A stretch of 64,000 nucleotides of DNA from a virus. Its lineage: Duplodnaviria > Caudoviricetes. The notes under the pieces are model-generated. The model did not search any database. It saw nothing but the letters and a program-made list of their open reading frames with translations, and was not told the origin of the DNA. Positions 3,122 to 57,030 of the stretch are shown piece by piece; the stretch's first letter is position 1; every line of letters starts with the position of its first letter. The translations under genes and the position numbers were made by a program. The stretch covers positions 5,479 through 69,478 of the IMG/VR virus record IMGVR_UViG_3300034993_000085; one strand, written 5' to 3'.

Positions 3122-4729
3122 TCAGCCTCCATACCGCATCTTCACTGGACGCCCGTCCCCCTGCATCTGAGCCGCGAGGACCATCTCTGCTATCCCGGAC
3201 AAACCATCGACCTGATCCTTGTACTTTACCCGAGGAAAGCCCAGACATTCATTCACGAAAGCCTTGGCCCACGGAGCATCGAGATCAACGAACAGTGTCC
3301 CGTGCGTCGCCTTGCCTGCCGGGAGTCGCGCTCGCACGATCTTATCCTGCGTGGACGGGATCACCTGTATGGTACAGAATGCCCGGTTCATCACGTTGAA
3401 CGCGATCGACTTGCACTCCTTCGAGCGGAACGCCGAGTCCTCCATTCCGATAGCATGGGGACGCATCCGGCGCACCACATCCACGATTGCGTCCTCTAGA
3501 GCGGGAGACTCCACCTGAAGCCGAACGAGGTCCGTGATGTACAGGTTGTAGCGTTCGTCTACGCACCCCGAGATGATGACTGAGTAGCAGGCCGACTCTT
3601 TCTTTGAGAAGGCTGGATCGATGTAGGTGAAACGGTAGCTCTTTTCAAAGATGCTCGGGTGTACCGAATCTCCCCGGTAAAAATCAATCGGTAAGGGACG
3701 GAAATCTTCCCGGTTTTTGAATATATCTCCGCCCGCGACTTCAGGATGGTGTTGATAAACGATTTGGAAGGTGGATTCATTCTTCGCGCGCTCCTTTGCG
3801 TAGAACTCTGCTGAGAAGCGCTCCGGCCACAGGGGCTCCCCCGGCAAACGCCCCAGCGGGTCATTCTCCTCTGCGATGCCGGGGATCGCGTAGATCAGCC
3901 ACTCGCTCGGATCGAGATCGCGCTGCTCAAGGAAGTGCCCCCCAAGGTCATCCTCAACCCAGCGGGTCATGATGGCTATCTCGATTCCTTCGTCGATCGC
4001 ATTCTCGACATCCGCATCGTCCGGGCGCTGGAGTCGGGGCACCACCGTCATGTCGTGGTAGCGCTTGGCGAACGACTGCTCGGTCGGAGACTCCGCCGCT
4101 TTCTGAGACAGGGGGTCATCGACGATCACCACGTTAGCGCGAGCACCGATGATCGATGCGCCCCAGCCCACGTTCCGGTAAGCCGGGTCCTTCTGGTGGA
4201 GCGGTGTTCCGTACAAGAACGCTCCGTCCGACGACCATCCACGCTTGATGTGTGGCCGGCATGCTCGGTCAGGAAAGATGTTGCGGTGCCGGAAGTCGTC
4301 CGATAGACCCGCGCGGACCGTGCTGCCGAAGAATCCAGCGTTCGTGTCAGCCGATGTCAGGAACAGTACCGAGTGGTTCGGGTGTCGCCCCAGGTACCAC
4401 TTGACGAAGATCAGCGAAACATACGTGGACTTCGCCATGTTCGGCGGCGCCAGGAGCAAGAGCTTCCGCTGCGGGAACGCGCGCTGCTCCATCTTCTGAA
4501 GGAGATCGATCCAGAACAGGTGGTGCCGCTGCGGCTCCATCTGGTGCACGTAGCGTGTGTACTCCGCAAGATCGTTGCGGATAAGCTCACACCGAGCTTC
4601 CGCCTCTTCCGGTGTCGAGCCTAGGTCGGTGTCGAAGTTTTGTCGAACGGCGCGTTGCTGCGCTTGCATCCGGTACATCGTCTGCGCAATGAGCGCATCC
4701 GCTTGGCTCCGATCAACAACGACCCCCAT
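3122..4729 (-). CDS. terL: Terminase large subunit
   Basis: Walker A-like APPNMAKST, Walker B VVIVDDP, nuclease motifs YIDPA and KDQVDG typical of Terminase_6/6C. Confidence 0.92.
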   Translation of the reverse strand: MGVVVDRSQADALIAQTMYRMQAQQRAVRQNFDTDLGSTPEEAEARCELIRNDLAEYTRYVHQMEPQRHHLFWIDLLQKMEQRAFPQRKLLLLAPPNMAKSTYVSLIFVKWYLGRHPNHSVLFLTSADTNAGFFGSTVRAGLSDDFRHRNIFPDRACRPHIKRGWSSDGAFLYGTPLHQKDPAYRNVGWGASIIGARANVVIVDDPLSQKAAESPTEQSFAKRYHDMTVVPRLQRPDDADVENAIDEGIEIAIMTRWVEDDLGGHFLEQRDLDPSEWLIYAIPGIAEENDPLGRLPGEPLWPERFSAEFYAKERAKNESTFQIVYQHHPEVAGGDIFKNREDFRPLPIDFYRGDSVHPSIFEKSYRFTYIDPAFSKKESACYSVIISGCVDERYNLYITDLVRLQVESPALEDAIVDVVRRMRPHAIGMEDSAFRSKECKSIAFNVMNRAFCTIQVIPSTQDKIVRARLPAGKATHGTLFVDLDAPWAKAFVNECLGFPRVKYKDQVDGLSGIAEMVLAAQMQGDGRPVKMRYGG

Positions 4730-5408: not shown

Positions 5409-5662
5409 TGCCGTGAGCTTTTGAGTGCCTCCGCTCCATGCTCCAGCCCCGAGACACCCTTGTACGCGATGTCCGCGAACTTGTCCCGTTCCTCTACCGT
5501 GTCCGCTAATCGCGCTGTCAGCGCCGCTACTATCGCGTCGTGGCTGGGCTTCCAGATAACCCGCCCGCTCATTGAAAGCCATAACACTCCAAAAAACATC
5601 ACAAGCGGTAGACCGTATTGTGTCGTTACCGCAAAGATGTCCATGTCCATCCCATTAGCCAC
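5405..5662 (-). CDS. Holin-like single-TM protein
   Basis: 85 aa: N-terminal TM (YGLPLVMFFGVLWL) followed by a charged helix. Confidence 0.45.
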   Translation of the reverse strand: MANGMDMDIFAVTTQYGLPLVMFFGVLWLSMSGRVIWKPSHDAIVAALTARLADTVEERDKFADIAYKGVSGLEHGAEALKSSRQ

Positions 5663-7315: not shown

Positions 7316-7560
7316 CGTGGGTCGTAGTTCCCGGCAGCGATGAACACGCAGTTTTGTACCGGGCATAGCTCCTTTGGCTCTTTCTTTTGGAACGTGTGCC
7401 CGTAGGTGCATCGATAGTCTGTTACCCAGACGTTCGGGTTATGGATGTGCTCGACATCATCGTTGTCCCAGAACGTGTTCGACTCCTTGGTCGTTGGTAC
7501 CCGCTGTACCCGGTACACGTAGTGGGGGTCTTTCTTCTGTTCGCACGTCGGACAGCGCAT
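7312..7560 (-). CDS. Small Cys-containing hypothetical protein
   Basis: 82 aa, CPTC...C motifs, coupled start/stop. Confidence 0.6.
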   Translation of the reverse strand: MRCPTCEQKKDPHYVYRVQRVPTTKESNTFWDNDDVEHIHNPNVWVTDYRCTYGHTFQKKEPKELCPVQNCVFIAAGNYDPR

Positions 7561-8170: not shown

Positions 8171-8656
8171 CTAGTCTCCGTACGCTTCCCGGAGCTTTTC
8201 GCGGAGTTCGGGCTTCTCAGCAACAAGCTGATGAATCACGAACATCAGCATATCAGCGGGGATATCTTTGATGGCCGCCAACTTCCCGTCGATGATGACC
8301 GCAGCGGGCGCCGCCGGGGCTCCGTGGCCTGGTACCTGGCAGTTGGGGCTCTTCCCTTCGTGGTCAGCTTCGAAGTGCTCCATCAGGTGCAGTCGCTTTT
8401 CAAGCCCCTGCATGTCATCTTCATCAAGAATCTGCACGACCGTCTCGCCCTTGACGTGCGCAGTGTTCCGATGCACGTCGCCGTGAATTTGGCACGTGTG
8501 GATAAGCACCCCGTCACCGGGTTCGATATCCAGCATCAGATTCATGGTCTTGATGACTTCGGGGTCCGTCTCAAATAGGACCGAACACCCGCGATCAATA
8601 CACCCGCAGCCGTGCGCCAGTCGCCGTGCAAGCTGCTCCTTAGTCATAATGGTCAT
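8171..8656 (-). CDS. Hypothetical protein (161 aa)
   Basis: ATG at 8656 with GGAGG RBS (MTIMTKEQLARR...). The ORF-track extension to 8818 crosses an sRNA/terminator and is unlikely. Confidence 0.65.
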   Translation of the reverse strand: MTIMTKEQLARRLAHGCGCIDRGCSVLFETDPEVIKTMNLMLDIEPGDGVLIHTCQIHGDVHRNTAHVKGETVVQILDEDDMQGLEKRLHLMEHFEADHEGKSPNCQVPGHGAPAAPAAVIIDGKLAAIKDIPADMLMFVIHQLVAEKPELREKLREAYGD

Positions 8657-8721
8657 TGGCTCTGCCTCCGTTTCAGATAGTTGTATATAACACAGTCTTT
8701 TGGCATGGCGCAAGGGGCAAG

Positions 8722-8816
8722 AAAAAGCCGCCCCCGCCCCTGGAGTATTGACCAAAATACAGAGGGCGAGAGCGGCAATCTGAAACAGGTGAGCCTTACC
8801 TGCTGGGGCGGTACCC
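8722..8816 (-). ncRNA. Stand-alone sRNA antisense to the shared translation-initiation region of the ribozyme-array genes
   Basis: Own promoter (8823-8851) and terminator (16-bp stem plus UUUUU at 8722-8726); terminator loop carries UGGUCAAUACUCC, the exact complement of GGAGUAUUGACCA. Confidence 0.65.
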
Positions 8817-8822
8817 ACGGGT

Positions 8823-8851
8823 AGTATATATGGTATTTACCTCGGAATCAA
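8823..8851 (-). promoter_or_regulatory. Sigma70-type promoter for the sRNA
   Basis: TTGATT-17 nt-TATACT on the minus strand. Confidence 0.7.
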
Positions 8852-9103
8852 GCCAACTTGGAGCCGGCGTCGATGTCGCTCCTTTTCTTGTTGCGCGGAG
8901 CGCCCTTCGTGGCAGGGGCAATCACACCCGGAATCTAACTGGTAGTCAAATTCCCCTGGGCTAAGCAACTCGGCCCAGACCCGGTGCATCCAACAGGCTT
9001 GGTGGACGGATATCAACTTCCCGTCGTCGGTCGGCATGAGCAGTGGCCCGCCGTCAAAACGCTCCTCGATGGCCCTGGACATATTGCAGTAGTTCGTAAT
9101 CAC
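8837..9103 (-). CDS. Hypothetical protein
   Basis: 88-aa ORF, GTG start coupled to upstream stop. Confidence 0.55.
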   Translation of the reverse strand: MITNYCNMSRAIEERFDGGPLLMPTDDGKLISVHQACWMHRVWAELLSPGEFDYQLDSGCDCPCHEGRSAQQEKERHRRRLQVGLIPR

Positions 9104-13592: not shown

Positions 13593-14153
13593 GTGCTCAT
13601 TTGGGCCGATAGCTCACTTGAAAATGACCGTTCGGTGACTGGCGCCCATATGACAGGGGGTATTTTCTGAATGGTCCTAGAACGGTCTTTTTTGGGGCAT
13701 TTACACGAGTTTTTAGGGTATTGACCATTGAATGCTCAAAGTGCACGTTTTGGACATATTTCCCGTTTATTCAGTTTTTCCGGCCTGCCCGGAAATGGCC
13801 GAAATTTGATCTAAAACGGGTCACTTTCGCAGATTGGGTCTTGTGTTCTGTTTTTACCTCGGGCATAGTGACATCACAACTTAATAGCAAGTCACACGGA
13901 GAGCACATCCGCTGGCATTGACCAGCGGACCAGTGAACGGAAGTGACAATCCGATCAAGAGGTCGGCCCGAGTAAGGGACTCCATCTGTCTCATGTAAGC
14001 GCTAACGCAGCCAATGAGAATGAGCCGAAATTCTCACTAAGTATGTATGGACGACGCACGAGGGTAGGCTAGTTCAAAGCGGCAAGTTAATAGGTCAATA
14101 CAATACTCCGAAATGAAATCTGCCCAGATGGTCAATCTGGGCAGAATCACTGG

Positions 14154-14181: not shown

Positions 14182-14201
14182 AGCGCTCGGGAGTATTGAC
14201 C

Positions 14202-14684
14202 ATGGCACAGCACACAACAGATCTATGCCCACAGTGCGGCGTTGCCTTAGCGAACCATGTCTGCCCACAACGTGTCGGGACGGTACCTGGTGTCGTTACG
14301 ACATTCGTGCACAATGGCGCTACGGTCTCGAAAGTTGTTCGCGCAGTGTCTAAGAATGGCGCATGCGGGCGTTGTGGCCTCGTTCATCACAATGAGCGCG
14401 GGACGAAGCTCGTGTGTACTGCACAGGCGGCTGCGAATTGGGCAAATGTGAAGCTTGACCCAATGTCGCCAGTATTCATGCAAACGGTTGCAGATTTTCT
14501 CCTCAGTGAGCAAGTCAACGGCACGGTCACGGTAGCAGCAGCGGCGCCAGTCGCAGCGGCGCCAGTCGCAGCGGCGCCAGTCGCAGCGGCGCCAGTCGCG
14601 GCGCCAGTCGCGGCGCCAGCATCGTCAGAGGCGAAGCCACTAACGAAGAAAGAGAAAAAGGCGATCATGGACGGCGCGCGCTAA
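14202..14684 (+). CDS. Early protein with Cys/His clusters and AAAPV repeats
   Basis: 160 aa; CPQC, CGRC; about five GCAGCGGCGCCAGTC-like repeats. Confidence 0.8.
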   Translation: MAQHTTDLCPQCGVALANHVCPQRVGTVPGVVTTFVHNGATVSKVVRAVSKNGACGRCGLVHHNERGTKLVCTAQAAANWANVKLDPMSPVFMQTVADFLLSEQVNGTVTVAAAAPVAAAPVAAAPVAAAPVAAPVAAPASSEAKPLTKKEKKAIMDGAR

Positions 14685-14758
14685 CGCAGAGAGGCATGCC
14701 GCCTAGGGTACTAGGCGGCATGTTAATGCGGCATGCGAGGTCTCAAGCCCTCGCAAAT
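14685..14758 (+). ncRNA. Twister ribozyme R1 (P5-type permutation)
   Basis: CGCA-GAGAG-[13-bp P1]-U|AA-UGCG-GC..P4 with loop UCUCAAGC-AAAU; T1 covaries (GAG/CUC); predicted cut 14724/14725. Confidence 0.88.
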
Positions 14759-14781
14759 TTGACGCATTTGGAGTATTGACT

Positions 14782-14925
14782 ATGGCACTCGGTACACGTC
14801 ACATTCGGCGCAGCGTGTCCGGATCGAAAAACGGATCACGCTACGATCACCGAGCGACTGTGAAAAACGCGGCTCGCAAAGCACGGCGCGAGGATAGCAA
14901 GCGTGAGGTGCGGAGTAATGGGTGA
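14782..14925 (+). CDS. Basic 47-aa peptide
   Basis: Shared RBS motif; MALGTRHIRRSVSGSKNGSRYDHRATVKNAARKARREDSKREVRSNG (hand translated). Confidence 0.7.
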   Translation: MALGTRHIRRSVSGSKNGSRYDHRATVKNAARKARREDSKREVRSNG

Positions 14926-14943
14926 GATGACGCTAGCCTAAAA

Positions 14944-15012
14944 CGCAGAGGGACATGCCACCCAATCCGGGTGGCATGGTAATGCGCGACCCGGCCCCAA
15001 GTCCGGGTAAAT
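14944..15012 (+). ncRNA. Twister ribozyme R2
   Basis: GCA-GAGGG-P1-GGU|AAUGC-GC..CCCGG-CCCCAAGU-CCGGG-UAAAU; cut 14980/14981. Confidence 0.87.
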
Positions 15013-15034
15013 CACACGCATTGGAGTATTGACC

Positions 15035-15307
15035 ATGAACTATCGGATGCTTACGTTTGACGTTCGCAACATGATTGTCAATCGCGTATTTAAGCACCAT
15101 GGGATAGATAGCACTCCGCGAGAAGGCGAGGCACTCTATCCCAGTATGACGATAGAACGCGCTCCAGATGGGCGGCGGATTGTTGTTGCCGTGCAGTATG
15201 CAATCGTCAACGATACCCATGTCGAGGCGTATTACGATTCGGCAGAGGAGGCGGCATTCTGGCTCGCAAATCCGGACATCGAGCACGCGTGGCGCGCTGG
15301 TAGCTAG
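15035..15307 (+). CDS. Hypothetical early protein (90 aa)
   Basis: Shared RBS motif; the stop codon overlaps the first base of the ribozyme. Confidence 0.8.
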   Translation: MNYRMLTFDVRNMIVNRVFKHHGIDSTPREGEALYPSMTIERAPDGRRIVVAVQYAIVNDTHVEAYYDSAEEAAFWLANPDIEHAWRAGS

Positions 15308-15371
15308 CAGAGGGACGCGGCGCCGCAAGGCGCCGTGGTAATGCGCGGCCCGGCCCCAAGCCCGGGTAAAT
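15307..15371 (+). ncRNA. Twister ribozyme R3
   Basis: Same core, P1 capped by GCAA tetraloop; cut 15339/15340; identical to R8. Confidence 0.88.
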
Positions 15372-15395
15372 ACAAAGCGCAGAGGAGTATTGACC

Positions 15396-16193
15396 ATGGC
15401 TATCTCAAGTGCCCCCACCGGGAACCCGCTTGTTCTGAACCGGGATGAGTTGCGTGATTTATTCATAAGTGCACCCGTCATGCAAGGCGAGACCGTGATT
15501 CTTCACGGGCCTCCTGGCACCGGGAAATCGAGCCTCGCGGACGAGCTAGCTCGCCGGACTGGGCGGCCCGTGTTCTGGGTCGCCTGTCATCCTGACGCTA
15601 CGGCAAATGATGTCGTCGGCGGCTGGACTCCCAAGCCGGATGGCTCGGGTGGCTGGCAATTCACGCCCGGTCCGATGCTCATGGCATGGGGCCTGACGGG
15701 AAATCCGGGAATCCTAATCGTGGACGATGTTCACGAAGCAGGCCCAGGAATCCGGGCGGCGCTGTATACAGCGATGAATCGACATTCAGCGCGCTATACA
15801 ACGCCCGATGGCATCACGCACCAGCCGGATTCGAAATACTGGTGCATTGTCACATCGAACGAGGCGCCCGAGGCGCTCCCGTTCCCGATTCTTGACCGTG
15901 GCGCGATTCGCGCTCCGGTTCTTCAGCCGAGTCAGGACATGCTCGATGCCCTGCATCCGGATATCCGAGATTTAGTCGAAATCGACTATGACGGAGCGAC
16001 GGACAATCCGGTCGCGACGTATCGTGAATGGAGCACGATGTCGAAACTGTGGCCGGCCATTGGGCTCGGTCGCGCGATTTTACTGGCTCTCGGGAGTCAG
16101 GCCCGGGCAAAGCGAATGCTCGAAAGCTTAACCAAGATCGGCATTAAGGACGCTGCCGACGCGTACGCACAAGTTGTCGCATCGATGCCATAA
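15396..16193 (+). CDS. MoxR-like AAA+ ATPase
   Basis: Walker A GPPGTGKS, VVGGWTP, FTPGP, Walker B ILIVDDV (DD for DE), TSN, LDR. Confidence 0.85.
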   Translation: MAISSAPTGNPLVLNRDELRDLFISAPVMQGETVILHGPPGTGKSSLADELARRTGRPVFWVACHPDATANDVVGGWTPKPDGSGGWQFTPGPMLMAWGLTGNPGILIVDDVHEAGPGIRAALYTAMNRHSARYTTPDGITHQPDSKYWCIVTSNEAPEALPFPILDRGAIRAPVLQPSQDMLDALHPDIRDLVEIDYDGATDNPVATYREWSTMSKLWPAIGLGRAILLALGSQARAKRMLESLTKIGIKDAADAYAQVVASMP

Positions 16194-16261
16194 GCAGAGG
16201 GACGCGGCGCCAGCAATGGCGCCGTGGTAATGCACGAATCCGGTCCCAAGTCCGGATTAAT
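16194..16261 (+). ncRNA. Twister ribozyme R4
   Basis: T2 covaries (AC/GU); loop UCCCAAGU; cut 16228/16229. Confidence 0.92.
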
Positions 16262-16284
16262 TCACGTGCAGAGGAGTATTGACC

Positions 16285-17664
16285 ATGACAGATTCACGAA
16301 GTCAGGACGCCTACCCGCGACTGATTCCGGGGCCATTTCAAGGCGGCAACTGGACCGTTATCAACTGCAATGACATGCACGCTAAAACGGCACCCCAGGA
16401 TAAGATGCTCGCGATTCCGCAGAATCTTACGCGCCACCAGGCTCTCATCCGGATGCACGAGTTGTATCACGTCGGACGAGGGCTTGATCCCCGGGATTTT
16501 GGGCCTGAGCCACGCGCATCGTTTCGGCGAATGTGCGAGGAGATCGCTGTCGAGACTGACGCGCTCAATAACCACTTCGATATTCGCGAAGCGCGCGATG
16601 GTCTCGATTGGGCGAGCTTCCCGAAGCCTGATGACCGGATCGGATGCGCCGTGATGGTGCTCCAACTTGTCGGCTCTGAGATCGTTTCGAAGAATCCGGA
16701 TTTGAGAGCGTTTTATCAAGAGGTGCTCTACAATCCGGCTCTTTCCTGGGACGATCAGCGCGTCTTAGGGCAAGCGTTTCGCGAAGTATTCAACGACACA
16801 TCGCCGGTCAACTGCGATGCGGTCGCGGACATGCTCGCGAAGCATTTTGCGCCTCCACCCGTGCAGACCGATCCGGGTCTGAATGCGGAGGAGCAGCGCA
16901 AAATCGACGACGCGCTGGCCGAGGCTGCCGAGGCTGCTGCGCAATCAGCGGCACAGGACGCCAAGACGGGCAAGATTGATCCGGATTCGCAAGTCCAGCG
17001 AACTCCGGTTCATGAGCACGAGGTCCACATCGAAGGCTACGGTCCGCATACGGTCAAAGATGGGCTCGCGATTCATTGGCACGTTGGCGGCAAGTCACCG
17101 TCCAAGGTGATTGCCGCAACATGGCGCGCATCAGATGCCAGCGGCCCGCTGCGCTATCCGACGCAGGCCATGCGCCCGGACGGGAAACCGTTTGGGCAGC
17201 GCGCGCAGGGTGGCACGCTCATCATCGACGCCTCCGGCTCGATGGGCTGGACGCAGGGCCAACTTGAATCCGCGATCAAGTCTCTACCGAACCTTACGGT
17301 CGGGATTTACTGCGGCTCACGCGATGCTGAGGGCTCACGCCTATGCATCGTCGGGCACAAGGGCCGGATATCGGAGTTCGACAGGTCATCTGAGACATTC
17401 ACGAACGGCAATGGCCGGTCGGATGCACAAGCGATCAAGCAGTGCATGAAGATCGGTTCCGGGCCGTACGTGTGGGTCTCGGACGGCGAGGTCCACTTCG
17501 ACGATATCCGCGAGGATATCCGGCCACTGATGGAGACCAAGAAGTCTCTGGTTCGCACGGTCACGGTCCAGGATGCCGTGGACTATCTCACCTACAAGAC
17601 GGTGAAGCTCAGCCGCGACGCTGACGAAAAGGCGCCGCTGCAATACGATAGGAGGCGAGTCTAG
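16285..17664 (+). CDS. VWA/MIDAS-domain partner of the AAA+ ATPase
   Basis: TLIIDASGSM (DxSxS) and VWVSDG in the C-terminal third. Confidence 0.75.
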   Translation: MTDSRSQDAYPRLIPGPFQGGNWTVINCNDMHAKTAPQDKMLAIPQNLTRHQALIRMHELYHVGRGLDPRDFGPEPRASFRRMCEEIAVETDALNNHFDIREARDGLDWASFPKPDDRIGCAVMVLQLVGSEIVSKNPDLRAFYQEVLYNPALSWDDQRVLGQAFREVFNDTSPVNCDAVADMLAKHFAPPPVQTDPGLNAEEQRKIDDALAEAAEAAAQSAAQDAKTGKIDPDSQVQRTPVHEHEVHIEGYGPHTVKDGLAIHWHVGGKSPSKVIAATWRASDASGPLRYPTQAMRPDGKPFGQRAQGGTLIIDASGSMGWTQGQLESAIKSLPNLTVGIYCGSRDAEGSRLCIVGHKGRISEFDRSSETFTNGNGRSDAQAIKQCMKIGSGPYVWVSDGEVHFDDIREDIRPLMETKKSLVRTVTVQDAVDYLTYKTVKLSRDADEKAPLQYDRRRV

Positions 17665-17731
17665 CAGAGGGACGCGGGCGCCGAAAGGCGCCCGTGGTAA
17701 TGCGCTCACACGGTCCCAAGCCCGTGTAAAT
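17664..17731 (+). ncRNA. Twister ribozyme R5
   Basis: P1 with GAAA loop; ACACGG-UCCCAAGC-CCGUGU; cut 17698/17699. Confidence 0.92.
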
Positions 17732-17754
17732 CACAGCGCAGAGGAGTATTGACC

Positions 17755-17916
17755 ATGCCAGAGTACCGTGTGACCTACTCGGTTGATGTCGAGGCAGAGA
17801 GTCACCAAGAGGCTGCTATGCAACTTCAAGGGGAAATGGTGCCGTACTACGCGACTGTAACAGTCCAGGAGACCGAGGACGGTATCCCGGTTGGTGCAGA
17901 GCACGAGATCGAATAA
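17755..17916 (+). CDS. Acidic 53-aa protein
   Basis: Shared RBS; MPEYRVTYSVDVEAESHQEAA... (hand translated). Confidence 0.75.
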   Translation: MPEYRVTYSVDVEAESHQEAAMQLQGEMVPYYATVTVQETEDGIPVGAEHEIE

Positions 17917-17928
17917 GGAGTATTGACC

Positions 17929-24158: not shown

Positions 24159-24190
24159 AAAGGGGCTTGGCGAGAGCTAAGCCCCTTTTG
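24159..24190 (+). terminator. Terminator/attenuator between Y RNA cluster and rsr
   Basis: AAAAGGGGCTT...AAGCCCCTTTTG inverted repeat. Confidence 0.6.
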
Positions 24191-24217
24191 CGTGTGTTCT
24201 TAGAAAGGAGAACGCCC

Positions 24218-25942
24218 ATGCGAACGTATCGGAACATTGGGTCCCGCCACGCGGTGACTCCGCAGTCAGAGCCCATTCCGGGCTCGAATCAGGTAAAAAA
24301 CTCAGCCGGTGGATTCACCTGGCAGATCGACGATTGGGCACGCCTTGAGCGGTTCTTGATTCTTGGGTCTGAAGGAGGCACCTACTATGTCAATGAGCGC
24401 AAGCTCACGCAGGACAACGCGACGTGCGTTGCACGGTGCATTGCGCAAGATGGGCTTCGCACAGTCGAGACTATTCGTGCTATCTCGGAGGCAGGACGAG
24501 CACCAAAGAATGATCCGGCGTTATTTGCGCTTGCGATGTGTGTGTCTCCGCCTGCCGACGATGCGACTCGCGCGGCTGCATTCGCGGCGTTGCCTCGCGT
24601 GGCGCGCATCGGCACCCATTTGCTGCACTTCATTGCGTTCATGGAGCAGTTCCGTGGGTGGGGTAAAGGCCCGCGTAAGGCGGTCGGCGCCTGGTTCAAC
24701 GACAAGAGCCCGGTAGACCTGGCATATCAGGTCACGAAGTACCCGAGCCGCGACAACTGGTCCATGGCTGACGCGCTGCGCCTGGCACATCCGACTCCGG
24801 CATCTGAAGATCATGCCCGACTCTACAAGTACGTCGTGGACAACGAGTACCCCGGGGTATCAGCCAACTCTATCCTTGTTGAAGGAGAAGAGGGGCTCAT
24901 GAAAACAGGTGACTTCGCAGTAACGAAGTACATGCTTGGTGTGTTGACGCTAAAAGAGCAGAAAGACCCGAAGGCTGCTGCGCAGTGCATCGCTGACTTC
25001 AAGCTGCCGCGCGAAGTCGTGCCCACGGAATTGCTCACGTCTCCGGATGTGTGGTATGCGCTGCTCCAGAGCATGCCTATCACGGCGATGGTGCGGAACC
25101 TGGCGACCATGACGCGTGTTGGGCTCATTGGCATGATGTCTGAGGCTGCTGGAACGGTTGCCGATAGGCTTGCTGACACTGAGCGTATCCGGAAGTCTCG
25201 GATTCATCCGATCCAGTTGCTCTCGGCCATGCTGACCTACAAGTCAGGCCATGGAAACCGTGGGCAGAACACGTGGACTCCGGTGCAGGGCGTGGTTGAC
25301 GCTCTCGATGGGGCGTTCTACACGAGCTTTGGCAACGTCGAGCCTTCCAAGGCGCGAACGCTGCTGGCGCTTGATGTGTCCGGCTCCATGCAGAGTGGCG
25401 AGGTCGGCGGGGTCATGGGACTGACGCCTATCCTGGCGGAAGCCGCTATGGCGATGGTCACGGCCCGGGTAGAGCCGCAGCATGGGTTCGTCGCGTTTAG
25501 CGCCGGGCTTCGGACACGGGCATCCATGAGCCGAGGGGGCATTACTCCGATGGACGTGTCTCCGAACATGCGCCTTGCGGATGTCATCAAGCACATGGAG
25601 TCGTACCCGATGGCGGGGACGGACTGCGCGCTCCCGATGCTCTGGGCCAAAGAGAACAAGGTGATGGCTGACACGTTCGTGATCTTCACGGATAACGAGA
25701 CGTGGGCCGGGGGTGTGCACCCGAGTCAGGCACTCCGCCAGTACCGGGAAGCGACGGGCATCCAGGCGAAGTGCATCGTGGTCGGGATGACGGCAACGGA
25801 GTTCTCGATCGCGGACCCCAACGATTCGGGCATGCTCGATGTGGTTGGGTTCGACACGGCGACCCCGAATGTCATCAGCCAGTTCAGCCGGCCAGTCAAC
25901 GCGGCGTTTGAGCCCGTTGCCTGGCAGGGAGAGCAGGAGTAA
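24218..25942 (+). CDS. rsr: Ro60/TROVE-domain RNA-binding protein
   Basis: QVKNSAGG, RFLILGSEGGTYY, RAPKNDPALFALA, MPITAMVRNL, RIHP, C-terminal VWA LDVSGSM, FTDNETW, LDVVGFD; ATG 24218 with AGAAAGGAG RBS. Confidence 0.95.
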   Translation: MRTYRNIGSRHAVTPQSEPIPGSNQVKNSAGGFTWQIDDWARLERFLILGSEGGTYYVNERKLTQDNATCVARCIAQDGLRTVETIRAISEAGRAPKNDPALFALAMCVSPPADDATRAAAFAALPRVARIGTHLLHFIAFMEQFRGWGKGPRKAVGAWFNDKSPVDLAYQVTKYPSRDNWSMADALRLAHPTPASEDHARLYKYVVDNEYPGVSANSILVEGEEGLMKTGDFAVTKYMLGVLTLKEQKDPKAAAQCIADFKLPREVVPTELLTSPDVWYALLQSMPITAMVRNLATMTRVGLIGMMSEAAGTVADRLADTERIRKSRIHPIQLLSAMLTYKSGHGNRGQNTWTPVQGVVDALDGAFYTSFGNVEPSKARTLLALDVSGSMQSGEVGGVMGLTPILAEAAMAMVTARVEPQHGFVAFSAGLRTRASMSRGGITPMDVSPNMRLADVIKHMESYPMAGTDCALPMLWAKENKVMADTFVIFTDNETWAGGVHPSQALRQYREATGIQAKCIVVGMTATEFSIADPNDSGMLDVVGFDTATPNVISQFSRPVNAAFEPVAWQGEQE

Positions 25943-25944
25943 GT

Positions 25945-26379
25945 ATGGACCCGGCAGTTTCGCAAATGCTTAGCTACCTTCAACAGGTAGCTGAGCGCCT
26001 GGGCATCGAGGGCTCTCGCTTGTGGCCTCAGCTTGTGTTCGCTACGTTCGTTCAATCCGTCGCGCTGCTTTTCCTTACCGTGTGTATCACAGGGATAAGC
26101 GCTGCGGTGACAGCGTTCGCCGTGTGGCGCTGGCGCCGCCAGTGGGCAGAAGCAAACAAGGAGTACAAGGAATACAACGCTGATCCAAGGAGTAGGGGCT
26201 ATGTGTCGTCTCCCTTTCCTCTGGAGATGTTCTGGTTCTACCCAATGCTCATCGGAGCGTCGTTCTTTTTCATCGCACTCATGATCCTCATTACGCATCT
26301 ATCTGAGTGGGCGATGGGGATATATTCTCCGGAAGTAGCGACGGTCTTGAATCTGGTGAAGTCGGTAAAAAGCAAGTAA
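25945..26379 (+). CDS. Membrane protein
   Basis: 144 aa, two TM helices; co-transcribed with rsr. Confidence 0.7.
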   Translation: MDPAVSQMLSYLQQVAERLGIEGSRLWPQLVFATFVQSVALLFLTVCITGISAAVTAFAVWRWRRQWAEANKEYKEYNADPRSRGYVSSPFPLEMFWFYPMLIGASFFFIALMILITHLSEWAMGIYSPEVATVLNLVKSVKSK

Positions 26380-26415
26380 AATATAGGCGAGGCTTGCAGA
26401 GGCCGATATGCCAGA

Positions 26416-26443
26416 AAGCCCCCCGTTTCCGGGGGGCTTTCCT
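26416..26443 (+). terminator. Intrinsic terminator
   Basis: GAAAGCCCCCC/GGGGGGCTTTC stem followed by T-rich bases. Confidence 0.75.
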
Positions 26444-26449
26444 TTGCCC

Positions 26450-26478
26450 TTGACATGCCCGATAGGGCGGGGTAAACT
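26450..26478 (+). promoter_or_regulatory. Sigma70-type promoter
   Basis: TTGACA-17-TAAACT. Confidence 0.8.
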
Positions 26479-26506
26479 GTTGTATATACAGAAGGAGGTT
26501 TTCACG

Positions 26507-26620
26507 GTGTATTTTGAAATTCCGCAGCTACGCATATGGGCCGCTCGTTGGCAGATACATTTTGAGCGCGGAAAGAATGGGCAATACAGGCGATGGTTCA
26601 CGCTTCGGTGGCCGTTCTAA
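26507..26620 (+). CDS. 37-aa aromatic-rich peptide
   Basis: GTG start with AAGGAGG RBS. Confidence 0.55.
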   Translation: MYFEIPQLRIWAARWQIHFERGKNGQYRRWFTLRWPF

Positions 26621-26784
26621 TGAAAAGTAGATCGGTCAAGACGCGCGAGGCGAAGGCTCAGGCACGGGCGCAGCGCTCCGTTGAGTGCATGCGGCGCGGG
26701 GTGAGGCTTGAGAGCCGCCCCCAGAACCCGCACAACCCGCCGAGCAATGCGCCCCGGTGGCGGAAGGATGGGACACCGAAATGA
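26620..26784 (+). CDS. 54-aa basic peptide
   Basis: TAATG overlap. Confidence 0.45.
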   Translation: MKSRSVKTREAKAQARAQRSVECMRRGVRLESRPQNPHNPPSNAPRWRKDGTPK

Positions 26785-27851
26785 CAGTTAAGACACGCGA
26801 ACTTTCTGATCTGGTCCGCGAGGCCCAGACAGCAGACGGTAACTCCCGCTACTACCACACGCAGCCGGGGTGGTTCGAGGACCTGGGCTACGGCTACGAT
26901 GACCCGGTTGACGCGCTCTGTCTCGAAGGCCATTCTGCACTCATTCAAAAGGTCCCGCTGAACCTGACTCTCGAAGGTTACGGAGAGATCAAACTCGCTA
27001 ACACCTATGGCCTGGTGCGGGAGCCGTCGATCCATGACCCGCATCCTCGGGTAACAGCGACCGTGAGCGGACGCTTTCAGCCGATCCAACAGGTTGACGT
27101 GGCAGAGATGCTGAAGCCAATCGCCCAACAGTTCCCGCTAGAGATGATCGCGGCGTACGGGCAGTTCAATGATCATGTTGTGTGGGGCTTCCGCTTCGGG
27201 GAGTTCACCATCAAGCCCCCGACCGGGCGTAAAGGCGACGATGGCGTGCACTGGCTCTATGTCGATCATGTGAACGATGGCGGGCACGGACTGCGGGGCA
27301 TGCTCCTGAATATCCGGGCCAAGTGCACGAACGTCCTGCCTCACGCAGGGAGGCACTCAAAGTTCAGCGTGTCGCTCCCGCACGTCGGCAACGTGTCGCG
27401 TCGGCTCGTGGATTGGGCAGACTTCATCACGCGAGCCAAGAGAGCGGCGCTCGATGAGACAGAGATGTATCAGCATCTCGCCAACGGGACGCTGGACCGA
27501 GAGACCATCGAAGATGTGTTCGGTGCCGTGTACCGGGTAGCTCGGCCAGCATCACTCGATGGGCTCGGGGATGAGATCGGCCCGGATACTCCTGATGATG
27601 TGGCCGCAAGTGTCGAGCGGTATCTCACTCGGGTTCGCCGCGCCCAGAAGTCGAAGCAAGCTGCTATCATTGCATTAGACACATTTAATGAGCGCAACCC
27701 GCAGTTCGCCAACACCAAATGGGCGGTGCTCCAGGGCGTCACGGAAGTTGAAACGTGGAAAACAGGACGCCTCCGGGGCTACTCTCTACTCTTTGGTGAT
27801 CGATCACTCACGATCAACAAGACAGCGGAGATACTGATCGGGCAGCGCTAA
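26781..27851 (+). CDS. DUF932-family protein
   Basis: GRFQPIQ, DGGHGL, RAKCTNVL, HVGN, WAVLQGVTE pattern typical of the family. Confidence 0.75.
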   Translation: MTVKTRELSDLVREAQTADGNSRYYHTQPGWFEDLGYGYDDPVDALCLEGHSALIQKVPLNLTLEGYGEIKLANTYGLVREPSIHDPHPRVTATVSGRFQPIQQVDVAEMLKPIAQQFPLEMIAAYGQFNDHVVWGFRFGEFTIKPPTGRKGDDGVHWLYVDHVNDGGHGLRGMLLNIRAKCTNVLPHAGRHSKFSVSLPHVGNVSRRLVDWADFITRAKRAALDETEMYQHLANGTLDRETIEDVFGAVYRVARPASLDGLGDEIGPDTPDDVAASVERYLTRVRRAQKSKQAAIIALDTFNERNPQFANTKWAVLQGVTEVETWKTGRLRGYSLLFGDRSLTINKTAEILIGQR

Positions 27852-27864
27852 TGGGAGCGCGTGT

Positions 27865-28440
27865 ATGGCTGATGAACGGAAGCTCTTGTGGATCGCACGG
27901 TACGAGGGGCGCTTGCTCTATATTCCTCATGAGAACATCGAGATGGTCGTATCGAACATCGACTACCAGGGGCGGGTTATTCCTCGGATGCCTATCCGCC
28001 TCTTCCGTATGACCCACGAGAACGAGGCGACGTACATCGACATCAACCCGAACGAGGACACCATGAACGACCTTCTTGGCCGGATCGTGGACCTCGGAAA
28101 CCTCGTGGATTACAGCGAGGGTATCCGGCGCCAACAGGCCGAAGTGATTCAACAGCGTCTCGAAGCGACGGCGCAGATGCAGGGGCCTGAAGAAATCACG
28201 ATCCCCGTGACTTCTGAGGTTCCAAACGGAGAGCGCACCAAGGCGTCGTTTCCTGAACCGCTTCCGGTGGATCGTGAGGAAGTCGCCGTGACTGGCGTGA
28301 ATGAGTGGGATGCGGACGCCAGCGCACTTCCTGATGTCGTCACCGAGCAGGCCCAACAGAATCTCATTGAGGAGGTCACACCCAGACCCGAGCCGCCGAA
28401 GGCTGATAAGGTGAGGAAGCGCAATGGAAATCGCCGCTAG
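27865..28440 (+). CDS. Hypothetical acidic protein
   Basis: 191-aa ORF, GGGAG RBS. Confidence 0.7.
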   Translation: MADERKLLWIARYEGRLLYIPHENIEMVVSNIDYQGRVIPRMPIRLFRMTHENEATYIDINPNEDTMNDLLGRIVDLGNLVDYSEGIRRQQAEVIQQRLEATAQMQGPEEITIPVTSEVPNGERTKASFPEPLPVDREEVAVTGVNEWDADASALPDVVTEQAQQNLIEEVTPRPEPPKADKVRKRNGNRR

Positions 28441-28522
28441 CGTTGGAATTGGGTTCGTTGCTGGTTTCATTACAGCACTTGTTATGGCCGTAGCAGCGAC
28501 GACCCGCATAGTAAAGGAGTAG
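28424..28522 (+). CDS. 32-aa TM peptide
   Basis: MEIAASVGIGFVAGFITALVMAVAATTRIVKE (hand translated), GAGGA RBS. Confidence 0.5.
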   Translation: MEIAASVGIGFVAGFITALVMAVAATTRIVKE

Positions 28523-28525
28523 CAG

Positions 28526-28681
28526 ATGAAGGTCAAAGTAGTGGGGTATTACACCCCCGATGAAGATGAGCAGGACCCGAAAGACAAAACGGGACTTACA
28601 TCGGAAGCCTATGAGCACCTGATGATGAATGACCTCATAAATCTGGAGATCGAGACGATCGAGAAGGTTCCGGGATCGTAG
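28526..28681 (+). CDS. 51-aa acidic protein
   Basis: AAGGAG RBS; abuts helicase start. Confidence 0.55.
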   Translation: MKVKVVGYYTPDEDEQDPKDKTGLTSEAYEHLMMNDLINLEIETIEKVPGS

Positions 28682-30058
28682 ATGCCCGACACGCGCGGCC
28701 TGTTACGTCTAAAACCCCATCAACTCGATGGGGTTTCGCATATTCTCAGCCGGGAGTATGCCATCACCGGAGCCGGTACCGGCACCGGCAAGACGGGCAT
28801 GATGGCCTGGGCGTCGAAGATGGCGCTCGAAGAGCTAGAGCCCGTGATGAACATCGTCCCGAACTCCATCATGCAGCAAACGCTCGAAGAGTACGAGTTC
28901 TGGCACGGGCAGGAGTGGGCACGCCAGCATGTCGTGCAGTTGCACAGCATGGCCCAGAAGGATCGCGCGGACCTACTCCGGAGAACGCGGCGCCAGCACG
29001 ACATCGTGGTTATCGCCAGTCACGAGATGCTGTCGAATAAAGAGGTTGCAGCGGCGCTCGAATCGAGAACATGGGCACTGACCCTGGTGGACGAAGGCTC
29101 CCGCTTCCGGAATGACAGCGCGCGCTCTCGGGCGCTTGGCCGCTTGCGCAAGGTATCGGGTATCCGGAACGTCATGTCTGGAACACTGGTTGTTCGGAAT
29201 CGAGGCGATCTGTGGTATCCTGGCGTGTTCCTAAAGCAGGGGCTCTTCTCCGGAATCACACAGCGTGAAATATTCATGCGGCATTTCTTCACCTTCGATG
29301 AAGAGACCCAGGAGTTCACCGAGAAAGAGCGCCCGGAGCATCGGGCAGAGCTTGATGCGATCGTGAATGCGATCACCTGGCGCGTCCAGCTATCCGATGT
29401 GCGTGACATGCCCGCGCGTACGATCACGCGGCGTGTCGTCGATATGAGCTTAGCCCAGCGCCGCGCGTACGCGGAGCTACGGGACACCCTGACACTGGAG
29501 ATCGAACGAGAAGATGACAAAGACTTTAAGCTGCGGGTGCGGCACTACGTTACGCGCATCCAGCGCTTGCAGGAAATCGCGGCTGGCTTTGCGCGGAACG
29601 CATCTGGGGATATCTACTACATCGGATCGAGCAAGACCGAGGAGCTTGGAGAGTTGCTTCAAGACGGTACTCCAAGTATTGTCTGGACTTGGTGGGTACC
29701 GGAACGGGATGCTGTTGTGGATCGCCTTCGCAATATACATATTAGCGTTACTCGTGACCGAGCCTATTTCAATGCCGGTCAGGCCCAGGTAATCGTCATG
29801 TCTCCCGCGTCCGGGGGATACGGCATGAACCTGGATCGGGCAGAGCGGATGATCTACCACTCACTCCCGTGGGACCTCGACCTGTATATCCAGAGTCAGG
29901 AGCGCAACTGGCGCCTGACCACTACGAAACCCAAGGAGATCGTGCATCTGGTTTCCCGGGATACCATCGATGAGCGGGTGCTCGGGAAGCTCATTGCCAA
30001 GGCGCGCATCAGTGAGCGTGCAATGGGCAAAAGCGATGCCCTTGCATTTCTGCGGTAA
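28682..30058 (+). CDS. SNF2-family SF2 helicase
   Basis: GTGTGKT, VDEG, MSGT, GGYGMNL, QSQERNWR. Confidence 0.9.
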   Translation: MPDTRGLLRLKPHQLDGVSHILSREYAITGAGTGTGKTGMMAWASKMALEELEPVMNIVPNSIMQQTLEEYEFWHGQEWARQHVVQLHSMAQKDRADLLRRTRRQHDIVVIASHEMLSNKEVAAALESRTWALTLVDEGSRFRNDSARSRALGRLRKVSGIRNVMSGTLVVRNRGDLWYPGVFLKQGLFSGITQREIFMRHFFTFDEETQEFTEKERPEHRAELDAIVNAITWRVQLSDVRDMPARTITRRVVDMSLAQRRAYAELRDTLTLEIEREDDKDFKLRVRHYVTRIQRLQEIAAGFARNASGDIYYIGSSKTEELGELLQDGTPSIVWTWWVPERDAVVDRLRNIHISVTRDRAYFNAGQAQVIVMSPASGGYGMNLDRAERMIYHSLPWDLDLYIQSQERNWRLTTTKPKEIVHLVSRDTIDERVLGKLIAKARISERAMGKSDALAFLR

Positions 30059-30069
30059 TAGTGTAAAAT
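30042..30069 (+). promoter_or_regulatory. Promoter
   Basis: TTGCAT-16-TAAAAT. Confidence 0.55.
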
Positions 30070-30089
30070 ACAACAGAAGGAGATCAGAT

Positions 30090-30293
30090 ATGAGTGTAGG
30101 ACCGTCAAAAGGCAAGGAAGCTCGAAGCGTGCATATAGCGCTGATAGTCGTTCCGTCGCTGAAGCAGCGTATAGCGGAACACGCGAGCAGAGAAGATAGG
30201 TCACAGTCGTGGATCATGCACAAAGCCCTGGAGCTTGGCATGACTGAGCTTGAGGCCCGCGCCAACGACAAGAACACGTACCCAGGGTCCTGA
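30090..30293 (+). CDS. Ribbon-helix-helix DNA-binding protein
   Basis: IALIVVPSLKQRIAEHASREDRSQSWIMHKALE; AAGGAG RBS. Confidence 0.7.
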   Translation: MSVGPSKGKEARSVHIALIVVPSLKQRIAEHASREDRSQSWIMHKALELGMTELEARANDKNTYPGS

Positions 30294-30304
30294 AAGGAGC
30301 CTTT

Positions 30305-30715
30305 ATGGTAAAAACCACAGACGAAAATTTCGAAAACTTGGCGCCGCCGCCAGGGTACGGTTGCATTGTGTGCGGAGAGCGTTTTACCCTGACCAACGGG
30401 GAGAAGATTCTCTCGGTGCACGAACACGTCAACAATAATATGACCAGCGAGCGTTTCTACCACCCCGGCTGCTACACCGCCAGCGTTCCAGCCCGTTACC
30501 GGAGCGAGCAACTCGACTCGCAGATCGGCGCCACGCAGGGGCCATGGTCATCGGTGGAGCTTCACAAGAACAGCAAGGGCTTCACCCACGACATCAAGGT
30601 GTACTTCCCTCCGGACTGGACAGCCGAGCAAGTTCAAGAGCGGCTCGCGGATTTCCAGAGGGTCATTGAGAAGCTCGAAAGCATTGGCAGCGAGGGGAGA
30701 CATGAGCTTGAGTGA
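30305..30715 (+). CDS. Hypothetical protein with Zn-binding residues
   Basis: CIVC...HPGC; AAAGGAG RBS. Confidence 0.65.
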   Translation: MVKTTDENFENLAPPPGYGCIVCGERFTLTNGEKILSVHEHVNNNMTSERFYHPGCYTASVPARYRSEQLDSQIGATQGPWSSVELHKNSKGFTHDIKVYFPPDWTAEQVQERLADFQRVIEKLESIGSEGRHELE

Positions 30716-30929
30716 TGATGCTCCGGAAGTGCATCTAGCCCCTCTTATCGCGGTCGCGCACTTGTTACTGGCTGCCGAAAGCCTAGCCCGAAACCTCGAT
30801 TTCAATCGCGCAGCGTATACGACAGCGCTTGCACAGAGTTTACTCGGCGTACTAAAAACCGAGCTTGATGCGTGCGACGCTTGGCAAGAGGAGAATCCGG
30901 ACAAGAAGTGGGAGAAGGTGAGCGAATGA
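30702..30929 (+). CDS. Hypothetical protein
   Basis: ATG 30702 with GAGGGGAG RBS. Confidence 0.55.
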   Translation: MSLSDDAPEVHLAPLIAVAHLLLAAESLARNLDFNRAAYTTALAQSLLGVLKTELDACDAWQEENPDKKWEKVSE

Positions 30930-42137: not shown

Positions 42138-43526
42138 CTAATCTCGGAACGCGACGTACTTGTACGGAGCACCACTGTAGTTCCCGTGCCAATCACCGGA
42201 GCCAACCCTGAACCCGTTGGCGATGATCTTCACATGAGTGCACCACTCAGTATTCCCACCATTATTACTAAACGCGCTGCCGCCCGTGTCGTGGATATGA
42301 TGCACCCCAATATTGGCATTGGATGTTCCACCTATAAGGAGCACGGCTCGCGGGGTAAATCCGACATTGAAGTCTCTGTTACCTGTTCCGCCATCTCCGG
42401 TATACGAACCACTTACAGGAACCGCAAGGGTTGACGCCGTAGTAAGCACGGCATTACCGCCCTGCTTGAGTGCCGTGAAGTCCGCATCATTGAGCGTCGC
42501 AACATTCTGCCCGCCCTTTTGTAGCGCCGTAAAGTTGGCGCTGTCGAGTGTTGCGACGGACTGCCCGCCTCGCTGAAGCGTTGTGAAGTTTGCACTTGCA
42601 AGTTTTGCGAGCGCGGACTCCTGAACTCCATCAACGGTGTCAGCATCGAGACCGGAGCTTGCCCCATCATTGCCCGCATCCCATATCTGGTGCTGGGCTC
42701 CCGCTATTGTTTTCCGGTGAAACGTGCCGCCCATCTCCATGAACGCCGCACCATTTACACCGGGACGATGGAACCCGATCGCCGCTATGCCCCCGGTTGC
42801 TTCAATATAGACCCCAGCATTGATGTAGAGATCACCATTGTCAGCGGCAGGCTTACGAGCAAGTAGCTGAGAGTTCCCGTTCAAGAATATGTTGGCGTTG
42901 TTTGCAGTAGAGAGGGATGACTGGATGCTGATACCAGCGCCCCCGGCCTGAATGTCAAGGCCCCCAGCAACCAGCGTCCCATAGGCACTTCCGGCCTGGT
43001 TGAGAAGGTGGAACTGGGCGTTGCGGGCCTGCATAATATGCCGCCCGCCGCCTCCCCCGCCACCCGTCAGCGAGTCAAAGAGGAATGTCCCCAGCCCGCC
43101 ATCCCCGTTCCACTGGATCGACCCGAACGACGCATGCCCGAGTGGTCCGAACCTGAGAGCCGGGTTCCCAGTAAGGACCGCAAGCTCCGATGCGCCGACC
43201 GCGCCGGCGGCTATTTGCGCCGCACCTACGGAGTCAGTCCCGAGTGCCGCAGAACCAACCGCCCCCGCCGCGAGCTTCGGTGCAGTGATTGCCCCGTCTT
43301 GAATCTTCGCGGTCGCGATCGATGCCGCCTGGTAGGCCCCGGCATGGATGGAAAGGTCAGCGACGCGAGCGACCGCGAGTCCCCGGGTAGATGCGTGCGT
43401 GTGCTGGTCTACCGCTGCCGCGAGACGCCCGAGGTCCTCCGGGAAAAGAGGATGTTCGTCGTCCGAATCTGCCCACTGAAACTGGGTACCTGCCGCAGTG
43501 AAATTTGAGGAAGTTAACCGTGCCAC
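42138..43526 (-). CDS. Tail fibre / receptor-binding protein
   Basis: Gly/Ala-rich; AVTxxKI-like repeats; internal ANFT repeats; VGFTP C-terminal module. Confidence 0.7.
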   Translation of the reverse strand: MARLTSSNFTAAGTQFQWADSDDEHPLFPEDLGRLAAAVDQHTHASTRGLAVARVADLSIHAGAYQAASIATAKIQDGAITAPKLAAGAVGSAALGTDSVGAAQIAAGAVGASELAVLTGNPALRFGPLGHASFGSIQWNGDGGLGTFLFDSLTGGGGGGGRHIMQARNAQFHLLNQAGSAYGTLVAGGLDIQAGGAGISIQSSLSTANNANIFLNGNSQLLARKPAADNGDLYINAGVYIEATGGIAAIGFHRPGVNGAAFMEMGGTFHRKTIAGAQHQIWDAGNDGASSGLDADTVDGVQESALAKLASANFTTLQRGGQSVATLDSANFTALQKGGQNVATLNDADFTALKQGGNAVLTTASTLAVPVSGSYTGDGGTGNRDFNVGFTPRAVLLIGGTSNANIGVHHIHDTGGSAFSNNGGNTEWCTHVKIIANGFRVGSGDWHGNYSGAPYKYVAFRD

Positions 43527-43556
43527 ATGATCCTCCTTTGAAGAGTAGTCACGGGC

Positions 43557-57002: not shown

Positions 57003-57030
57003 ATTATACACAATCACTCTGTCCCGCCAA
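57003..57030 (-). promoter_or_regulatory. Strong promoter for the sRNA
   Basis: TGTGTATAAT (perfect extended -10); TTGGCG 16 nt upstream. Confidence 0.7.

Follow-up and report, generated by a model that had tools for sequence, protein, structure and literature searches.

The window analysed here, a stretch of 64,000 nucleotides, covers positions 5479-69478 of a 69,478-bp virus record rated complete by CheckV. Between two of its minus-strand genes, at 8837-9103 and 8171-8656, lies a unit which, read on the minus strand, consists of a promoter, a 7-bp hairpin, a single-stranded linker, a 14-bp stem around 22 nt, and UUUUU. The predicted product is a non-coding RNA of ~95 nt (8722..8816, −), with its 5′ end set from the −10 box and its 3′ end from the U-tract. 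The upstream gene (8837-9103, −) encodes an 88-aa Cys/His-rich protein, a candidate regulator of the promoter. The downstream gene (8171..8656, −) has a GGAGG Shine-Dalgarno sequence and encodes a 161-aa protein of no known family; it heads a block leading to a DnaJ-domain protein, a putative small terminase and the large terminase TerL (3122..4729, 535 aa).

The promoter, P1 (TTGATT-17-TATACT; 8823..8851, −), had been proposed in the initial annotation and was recovered by promoter scan at 8851-8823. It matches at 9 of 12 positions, as many sites do, and its use as a sigma-70-type promoter is assumed. Promoter-like sites were not enriched in the region (3 found, versus 7.5 in shuffles), so P1 by itself is weak evidence and proves nothing alone. 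The window's only 10/12 matches to the sigma-70 consensus were found at 57030 (−; TTGGCG-16-TATAAT) and 26450 (+; TTGACA-17-TAAACT), the former heading the other candidate small RNA noted in the initial annotation.

Hairpin 1 (8784..8804, −) has a 7-bp stem with a CAGGU/ACCUG core, in which 100% of cells are paired across relatives and one G-U pair has changed to A-U. The terminator hairpin (8727..8776, −) comprises a 14-bp G+C-rich stem, an internal loop, an inner helix of 4-6 bp and the apical loop UUGGUC, and is followed by a U-tract of UUUUU and then CUU (8722..8726, −) that is conserved in relatives. The region folded with a minimum free energy of −44.2 kcal/mol (z −3.4, ViennaRNA), and in the preferred structure the 14-bp stem closes a 22-nt region, in which a 5-bp helix, GUAUU/AAUAC, lies beneath the apical loop. 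The hairpin and U-tract of the intrinsic terminator described earlier are therefore real, while the 17-nt loop assigned to it reflects an alternative register of the G-rich 3′ arm. Within this loop region lies a 13-mer complementary to ribosome-binding sites (the anti-RBS), UGGUCAAUACUCC (8742..8754, −). Its UGGUC occupies the apical loop, AAUAC the inner helix and UCC the internal loop. Five of the 13 bases thus sit in a predicted helix, and UUGGUC has an unpaired probability of 0.88-1.0.

The unit had been described as having no ORF. This calls for qualification in the window, where a frame is open across the unit and in frame with the downstream gene (ORF 8171-8818); a coding reading of that frame was nonetheless ruled out, as in relatives the frame contains stops and is broken by non-triplet indels (4, 1 and 8-11 nt). 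No Rfam family matched at gathering scores, and searches with E values up to 10 gave only chance miRNA and lncRNA matches of 14-18 bits.

On the plus strand the 13-mer reads GGAGTATTGACCA, and the entire 69.5-kb genome holds 11 exact forward copies and no reverse copy, always on the plus strand. Ten lie at the starts of array genes (14190, 15023, 15384, 16273, 17743, 17917, 18248, 18546, 19098 and 19656, +). The eleventh, at 8742-8754 (+), falls between the two minus-strand genes, is followed by AAA and not TG, and is the sole copy away from a gene start. The claim that the terminator loop is the exact complement of the array sequence from the Shine-Dalgarno to the A of AUG at 10 starts was thus borne out. 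A copy with one mismatch, a C-to-T/U variant, occurs at a further array start (14770), and a degenerate copy with two mismatches at 13715. Allowing up to two mismatches, 14 matches were found where 1.0 was expected, a number reached in 0 of 100 shuffles, and a whole-genome search found the motif nowhere beyond these sites. The chance expectation given previously, ~0.002, is right for one fixed 13-mer; by our arithmetic it rises to ~0.02 when a match to any 13-mer within the invariant 21-nt leader is counted.

The target set (14190..19668, +) comprises 10 exact copies of GGAGUAUUGACCA, each with its 3′ end at the A of AUG, and the C-to-U variant at 14770. The genes sharing this leader are consecutive on the plus strand, with 10-11 starts. 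Nine Twister-P5 ribozymes (14685..19638, +; Rfam RF02684, 47.7-58.1 bits against a cut-off of 37.6 bits) lie between them, each with its 3′ end 17-19 nt ahead of the 13-mer. The exact copies at 14190 and 17917 have no upstream ribozyme, indicating that the motif tracks gene starts and not the ribozyme repeat. No similarity beyond the 13-mer was detected between the array units and the 8742 region. The TTGACC of the motif was considered as a −35 box and ruled out, since a −10-like hexamer is correctly spaced at one array copy only. A few kb downstream of the ribozyme array, the gene at 24167-25939 (+) encodes a 591-aa Ro60 homologue, matching the TROVE and Ro60 vWA domains (E 4e-43 and 6e-63).

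The first array gene, which lacks an upstream ribozyme, carries an anti-RBS sequence of its own in cis. The element, GGUCAAUACAAUACUCC (14093..14109, +), lies in its 5′UTR ~85 nt ahead of the gene and has the form GGUCAAUACA(A/G)UACUCC. In the minimum free energy fold it pairs with 14189-14201 (z −2.5), and it is predicted to sequester the RBS of that gene. It is kept as GGTCAATACAGTACTCC in a relative, contig L193. This conservation suggests that occlusion of the motif by pairing may be used elsewhere in the same phage. An 11-bp hairpin also lies upstream of the first array gene (14119-14145, +), and its stem in L193 is fully different in sequence yet complementary; on the minus strand it adjoins a U-rich run and was called terminator-like. 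Its loop, GGUCA, was not counted as an anti-RBS element, as the L193 loop is UCC and the loop is not conserved.

Pairing between the small RNA and the array leaders was predicted to be favourable. The 13-bp duplex has a calculated energy of −20.8 kcal/mol, against opening costs of 4.2 kcal/mol for all 13 nt of the small RNA site and 1.6-5.4 kcal/mol for the target sites, leaving a net energy of about −11 to −15 kcal/mol. Pairing spans 13-14 bp at 11 starts. The 14-nt match reported for the gene at 15035 is correct; for the gene at 14782, credited with 11 nt, the match in fact extends over 14 positions with one G-U pair. The variant at 14770 stays paired through G-U, and at 13715 one of the two substitutions pairs in the same way while the other, at the first base, is unpaired; with three substitutions only, this retention of G-U pairing is not significant. 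In predicted folds of the target 5′ regions, a helix of the UGCGC/GCGCA type closes round the last hairpin of the ribozyme and the RBS is mostly open. Trans antitermination, by array leaders invading the terminator stem, was ruled out because leader complementarity ends at the loop edges.

The unit is conserved in relatives. Three homologues of the downstream 161-aa protein were found at ~54% identity, and contigs L143, L144, L145 and L182, of a lineage whose TerL is 91% identical, carry the unit upstream. A third lineage, L183, was reached via TerL (80% identical); its homologue of the 161-aa protein is 34% identical, and the unit is again present. A covariance model, R1, scored 104.9 bits in the window, 126 bits in L143, L144 and L145, and 66 bits in L183, which was scored with a model built from the other two lineages. 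DNA identity over the small RNA is 86% in the 91% lineage and 78% in L183, compared with 81% and 75% for TerL and 58-70% for the two flanking genes. Across the three lineages, the unit is therefore as well conserved as TerL DNA and far above its flanking genes. Sequence conservation starts at the −35 box, and in the relatives P1 keeps the 17-nt spacing and TATACT while its −35 box reads TTGACT or TTGACA, closer to consensus than the TTGATT of the window.

The stems are maintained as well. Overall, 98% of stem cells are paired, versus 38-59% in slid controls, although with three lineages only the power of this comparison is low. Two stem pairs have changed on both sides (GC/AU, and AU/CG/UA at one position), three further pairs have changed through wobble, and the terminator stem is 100% paired. 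The inner helix is kept by changes on both strands, as GUAUU/AAUAC, GUGUU/AAUAC and GUUU/AAAC. In every lineage the fold of the minus strand is more stable than that of the plus strand by 2-6 kcal/mol, an advantage which arises from G-U pairs and marks the minus strand as the folded one.

In the 91% lineage the loop 13-mer is identical to that of the window. An array of this lineage was found on L193, a contig from the metagenome sample of L145 (JGI 3300072490); it has three twisters and three starts with exactly GGAGTATTGACCATG, the motif of the first gene being one base shorter. In L146, a further relative (71% protein identity), each end of the contig carries the exact leader, and Twister-P5 matches are present too. 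Contig ends at L146 1-25 and 1470-1496, and the left ends of L143 and L185, stop at or just before leader-ribozyme repeats. Assemblies evidently break at these repeats, and such arrays would thus be hidden in metagenomes.

The L183 loop, UUUGGUCAAACUCC, has one U fewer than that of the window. From this loop one would expect a leader GGAGUUUGACCA (−21.5 kcal/mol) or, if the leader is unchanged, a bulged duplex (−17.7 kcal/mol). A leader GGAGTTTGACCA in an array of the L183 lineage, if present, would amount to direct covariation of loop and target. No such array was found on the L183 contig, which when extended to its end gave only a divergent intergenic region, and L192, a contig with a 32%-identical homologue from a run of neighbouring accession number, had neither twisters nor the leader. 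As judged from the sequences, the invariance of both partners in the 91% lineage while the proteins diverge is conservation, and not covariation. Broader searches returned no additional relatives: megablast against the phage collection gave no nucleotide match, and protein-seeded scans of viral contigs recovered none. Only chance matches, and single ones, came from IMG/VR with a 14-mer pattern of the leader, and chance matches alone from metagenome, viral and genome contigs queried with anchor motifs beside the loop (one in the RNA, one past the terminator).

A second complementarity, missed in the initial annotation, connects the RNA with its downstream neighbour. The 3′ strand of hairpin 1 and the single-stranded linker together form a second seed, CCUGUUUCAGAU (8778..8789, −), complementary to AUCUGAAACGG (8668..8678, −) in the 5′UTR of the downstream gene, which runs into the GGAGG Shine-Dalgarno. 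A 9-mer of this complementarity has only two sites in the window, one in the 5′UTR and one, inverted, in the small RNA. Both copies are invariant in all three lineages, save that a G-U pair in the window is A-U in L183. RNAalifold, applied to the read-through transcript, formed the helix between linker and 5′UTR in all four sequences, the complementarity extending over 11-12 bp, and predicted duplex energies were −15.0 and −20.9 kcal/mol. Between terminator and gene lies a candidate second promoter, P2 (TTGCGC, 17 nt, TG-T-TATATA; 8684..8713, −), read by eye and not called by the promoter scan. It falls within a 25-nt block conserved in all lineages and may serve the downstream operon. The RNA may also act, then, on the neighbouring gene, either in trans on an mRNA from P2 or in cis on terminator read-through. 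This keeps a cis-leader role in play.

Taken together, a promoter, covarying stems, a non-coding frame and conservation above the flanking genes form the signature of a selected non-coding RNA gene; in all probability 8722-8851 (−) is a genuine small RNA gene that is conserved and bears an anti-RBS loop. As to its function, the best-supported mechanism is repression in trans of the ribozyme-delimited early genes, to which we assign a probability of roughly 0.55. A sigma-70-type promoter of its own would produce an RNA of ~95 nt, ended by the intrinsic terminator, whose hairpin loop would display UGGUCAAUACUCC for pairing over 13-14 bp with the Shine-Dalgarno, the spacer and the A of AUG. The targets would be 10-11 early genes, cut into separate mRNAs by the nine twister ribozymes. 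Contact would begin at the open apical loop UUGGUC, with GACCA as its target, and spread through the weak inner helix. By masking the 30S binding site, the resulting duplex would prevent translation from starting anywhere in the block; mRNA decay would probably be faster as a consequence. We infer the transcription, the direction of effect (repression) and the timing of the small RNA. The off-switch proposed in the initial annotation therefore stands as a conserved non-coding unit with plausible pairing, its repressive role being an interpretation of these features.

Because the unit heads the block toward the terminase genes, a leader resembling that of lambda PR′-6S-tR′ is a serious rival, or an added role. 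The RNA would in that case serve chiefly in cis, as the leader of the leftward late operon, with the short transcript a by-product and the loop match secondary or unused. The operon would be transcribed from P1, with antitermination needed to pass the terminator, and the linker would pair with the downstream 5′UTR and Shine-Dalgarno. Several features are consistent with this arrangement: the gene block that extends to the putative small terminase and TerL begins directly downstream of the unit; a strong terminator follows a strong promoter by ~95 nt; and the 11-12-bp complementarity between linker and downstream RBS is conserved, its helix forming in all four sequences with the G-U to A-U change in L183. 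In addition, the small Cys-rich gene always abuts the promoter, its stop codon falling inside the P1 spacer in all three lineages, and in lambda it is the antiterminator gene Q that abuts the late promoter. However, the 88-aa protein has no Pfam or PHROG match, no −10-like pause element was seen in the first ~20 transcribed bases, and the conserved −10-like block with an upstream TG past the terminator suggests that the downstream genes have their own promoter. Nor would such a leader explain why the loop matches, exactly and over 13 conserved nt, a motif that lies at a distance of 5.5 kb (~0.02 by chance). We consider it unlikely as the main function. The two roles are not exclusive, and a cis-leader may coexist with trans repression or replace it.

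It is distinctly less probable that the RNA gene and its terminator are real and the match between loop and leader is of no regulatory use; the match would then be a recombination relic, or the loop would be kept for some other partner, for example a UUGGUC stem-loop-binding protein. Loop and target showed no covariation, the RNA is conserved as a whole and not in the loop alone (CACCUGUUUCAGAU is equally invariant), and the L183 loop has lost one base, all of which would fit this account. Yet a relic must have decayed everywhere outside the 13-mer, given that no similarity to the array units extends beyond it, and the match persists in lineages with 34-54% identity in the neighbouring genes. 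Even the shortened L183 loop still pairs with the unchanged leader at −17.7 kcal/mol.

Pairing with the leaders could also have an outcome other than repression, such as protection of mRNAs with a 5′-OH, or competition with the cis anti-RBS. The predicted pairing is common to this possibility and to trans repression, and the phage does encode Ro60, an RNA-binding protein. The leaders, however, are mostly unstructured at the RBS, with opening costs of 1.6-5.4 kcal/mol, so a duplex over Shine-Dalgarno and AUG should block ribosomes and not free them; the small RNA and the cis anti-RBS have the same polarity, which precludes displacement of the latter through pairing between the two. We therefore regard a non-repressive outcome as improbable.

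Least credible is the reading of the 13-mer as a site on double-stranded DNA to which a protein of the phage or its host binds, 8742 being one more operator: all 11 exact copies do share one DNA orientation, and at 8742 the motif belongs to an imperfect palindrome, GTATT-N6-AATAC, but every array copy, including the two without a ribozyme, is locked to a start codon and ends at the A of ATG, which indicates function at the RNA level, operators at each cistron within an operon would have no obvious role, and the stem changes at 8742 keep pairing of the minus-strand RNA with G-U, which DNA binding would not need.

The uniform leaders need not owe their existence to the small RNA. Twister arrays in which the RBS closely follows the ribozyme are widespread among phage records; four others had 7, 2, 15 and 5 copies. 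Arrays of 5-15 of these ribozymes lie between genes at 21418-30802 of G004 (contigs L201/L202), 21289-25208 of G001 and 42361-47844 of G005. The Shine-Dalgarno in these records follows the ribozyme by 5-20 nt and the leaders are often nearly uniform; in G004 the leader AAAAGGAGAGA occurs at nine starts. No additional copy of the leader, in either orientation, was found in these phages, and model R1 detected no homologue in five other twister-array phage records or in a relative with 42% TerL identity. Near-uniform leaders without an antisense copy imply that leader uniformity does not require a small RNA, and they do not support the initial proposal that the uniform RBS exists so that one RNA can silence all units. 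More probably, leader uniformity came first and the small RNA arose to take advantage of it. In two distant relatives, L147 and L148, the array genes are the same, but another intergenic repeat lies between them and their ribosome-binding sites vary. This repeat stands in place of the twisters (L147 ~4590-4677, 5535-5617 and 7330-7427; L148 ~1505-1605) and consists of AAATGG, a hairpin with a covarying stem, TCATA... and GATACTTAT..., with no Rfam match at gathering scores; it may be a processing element of another type.

Antisense control by small RNAs is already well known, and several systems resemble the one proposed here, the nearest in function being the phage antisense RNAs c4 and CI and the multi-target bacterial small RNAs that occlude ribosome-binding sites. 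The c4 RNA of phages P1 and P7 and the CI RNA of P4 are phage antisense RNAs that pair with repeated short sites in an early operon. The P1 c4 sites overlap a ribosome-binding site, and one RNA shuts down a block of genes. The likeness lies in a small phage RNA with an exposed sequence directed against repeated short targets in an early operon. The c4 and CI RNAs, however, arise by processing of transcripts from the very operons that they regulate, and they act at two sites. The RNA described here would start at a promoter and end at a terminator of its own, at a locus 5.5 kb from its targets and on the opposite strand; those targets number 10-11, are identical and mostly follow a ribozyme.

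In lambda, the strong promoter PR′ gives rise to the short, terminated 6S RNA, which ends at the strong terminator tR′ upstream of the late genes. In both cases a promoter with a terminator close behind it precedes late or packaging genes, and a small gene adjoins the promoter. The unit differs in that no Q-like protein was recognised and no pause element was seen, and in that this RNA matches 11 ribosome-binding sites; lambda 6S RNA is not known to have a trans target.

The multi-target small RNAs GcvB, Spot 42 and RyhB repress at or near the Shine-Dalgarno through short, degenerate seeds that recognise unrelated leaders. As in those cases, one small RNA with a terminator hairpin and U-tail would act on many mRNAs near the Shine-Dalgarno. 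Unlike them, the targets here are identical 13-mers, and the seed lies in the terminator loop instead of a single-stranded 5′ region. A single RNA directed against an identical 13-nt RBS at 10-11 cistrons, most of them released by ribozymes, was not described in the literature searched.

A further analogue is the start-associated sequence (SAS) of cluster K mycobacteriophages, which the initial annotation had cited and which proved nearer than expected. SAS is a 13-bp asymmetric motif that includes the Shine-Dalgarno, reaches past it and lies a few bases ahead of the ATG of many non-structural genes (PMC3203893). Its orientation is nearly always one way, and the K1 phages each have one reverse copy off gene starts (Pope et al., PMC3203893). 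Papers from 2024 and 2025 still give its role as 'not known', and antisense is not mentioned in them (PMC11373665, PMC12699233). In Adephagia (JF704105), the reverse SAS was located at record positions 58682-58694, with one mismatch, in a 430-nt gap between genes 92 and 93. It falls in the apical loop of a strong two-tier hairpin on the transcribed strand (z −3.8; L212 46660-46720, about 58660-58720 of the record), the loop reading GGCCUCCUAUCCC, the SAS complement with one mismatch. The predicted duplex with SAS has an energy of −22.0 kcal/mol, and the hairpin is conserved in Anaya (L213, about 3850-3900). TM4, of subcluster K2, has SAS and no reverse copy, which likewise lends no support to the idea of a start motif that exists for the sake of its antisense RNA.

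The K1 phages thus share with the phage studied here a common start motif and a single reverse copy in a hairpin loop. The motifs differ, the cluster K consensus being GGGATAGGAGCCC as against GGAGTATTGACCA here; the phages are unrelated, and the mycobacteriophages have no ribozymes. From these comparisons, the phage here would function like the SAS system but is not a member of it, and the predicted anti-SAS hairpin of Adephagia and Anaya is a lead, not a result. We suggest only tentatively, and as rather doubtful, that some phages, namely this lineage and the K1 mycobacteriophages, switch translation of an entire early block with one RNA. Repression in trans by the small RNA described here, if true, would provide a regulatory context for twister-ribozyme arrays in phage genomes, the biological role of which is still called unclear (PMC6765202), and a compact post-transcriptional off-switch for an entire early programme. 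The wider reading would also offer a testable mechanism for the 15-year-old puzzle of SAS, in a cluster of phages used in therapy and genetics.
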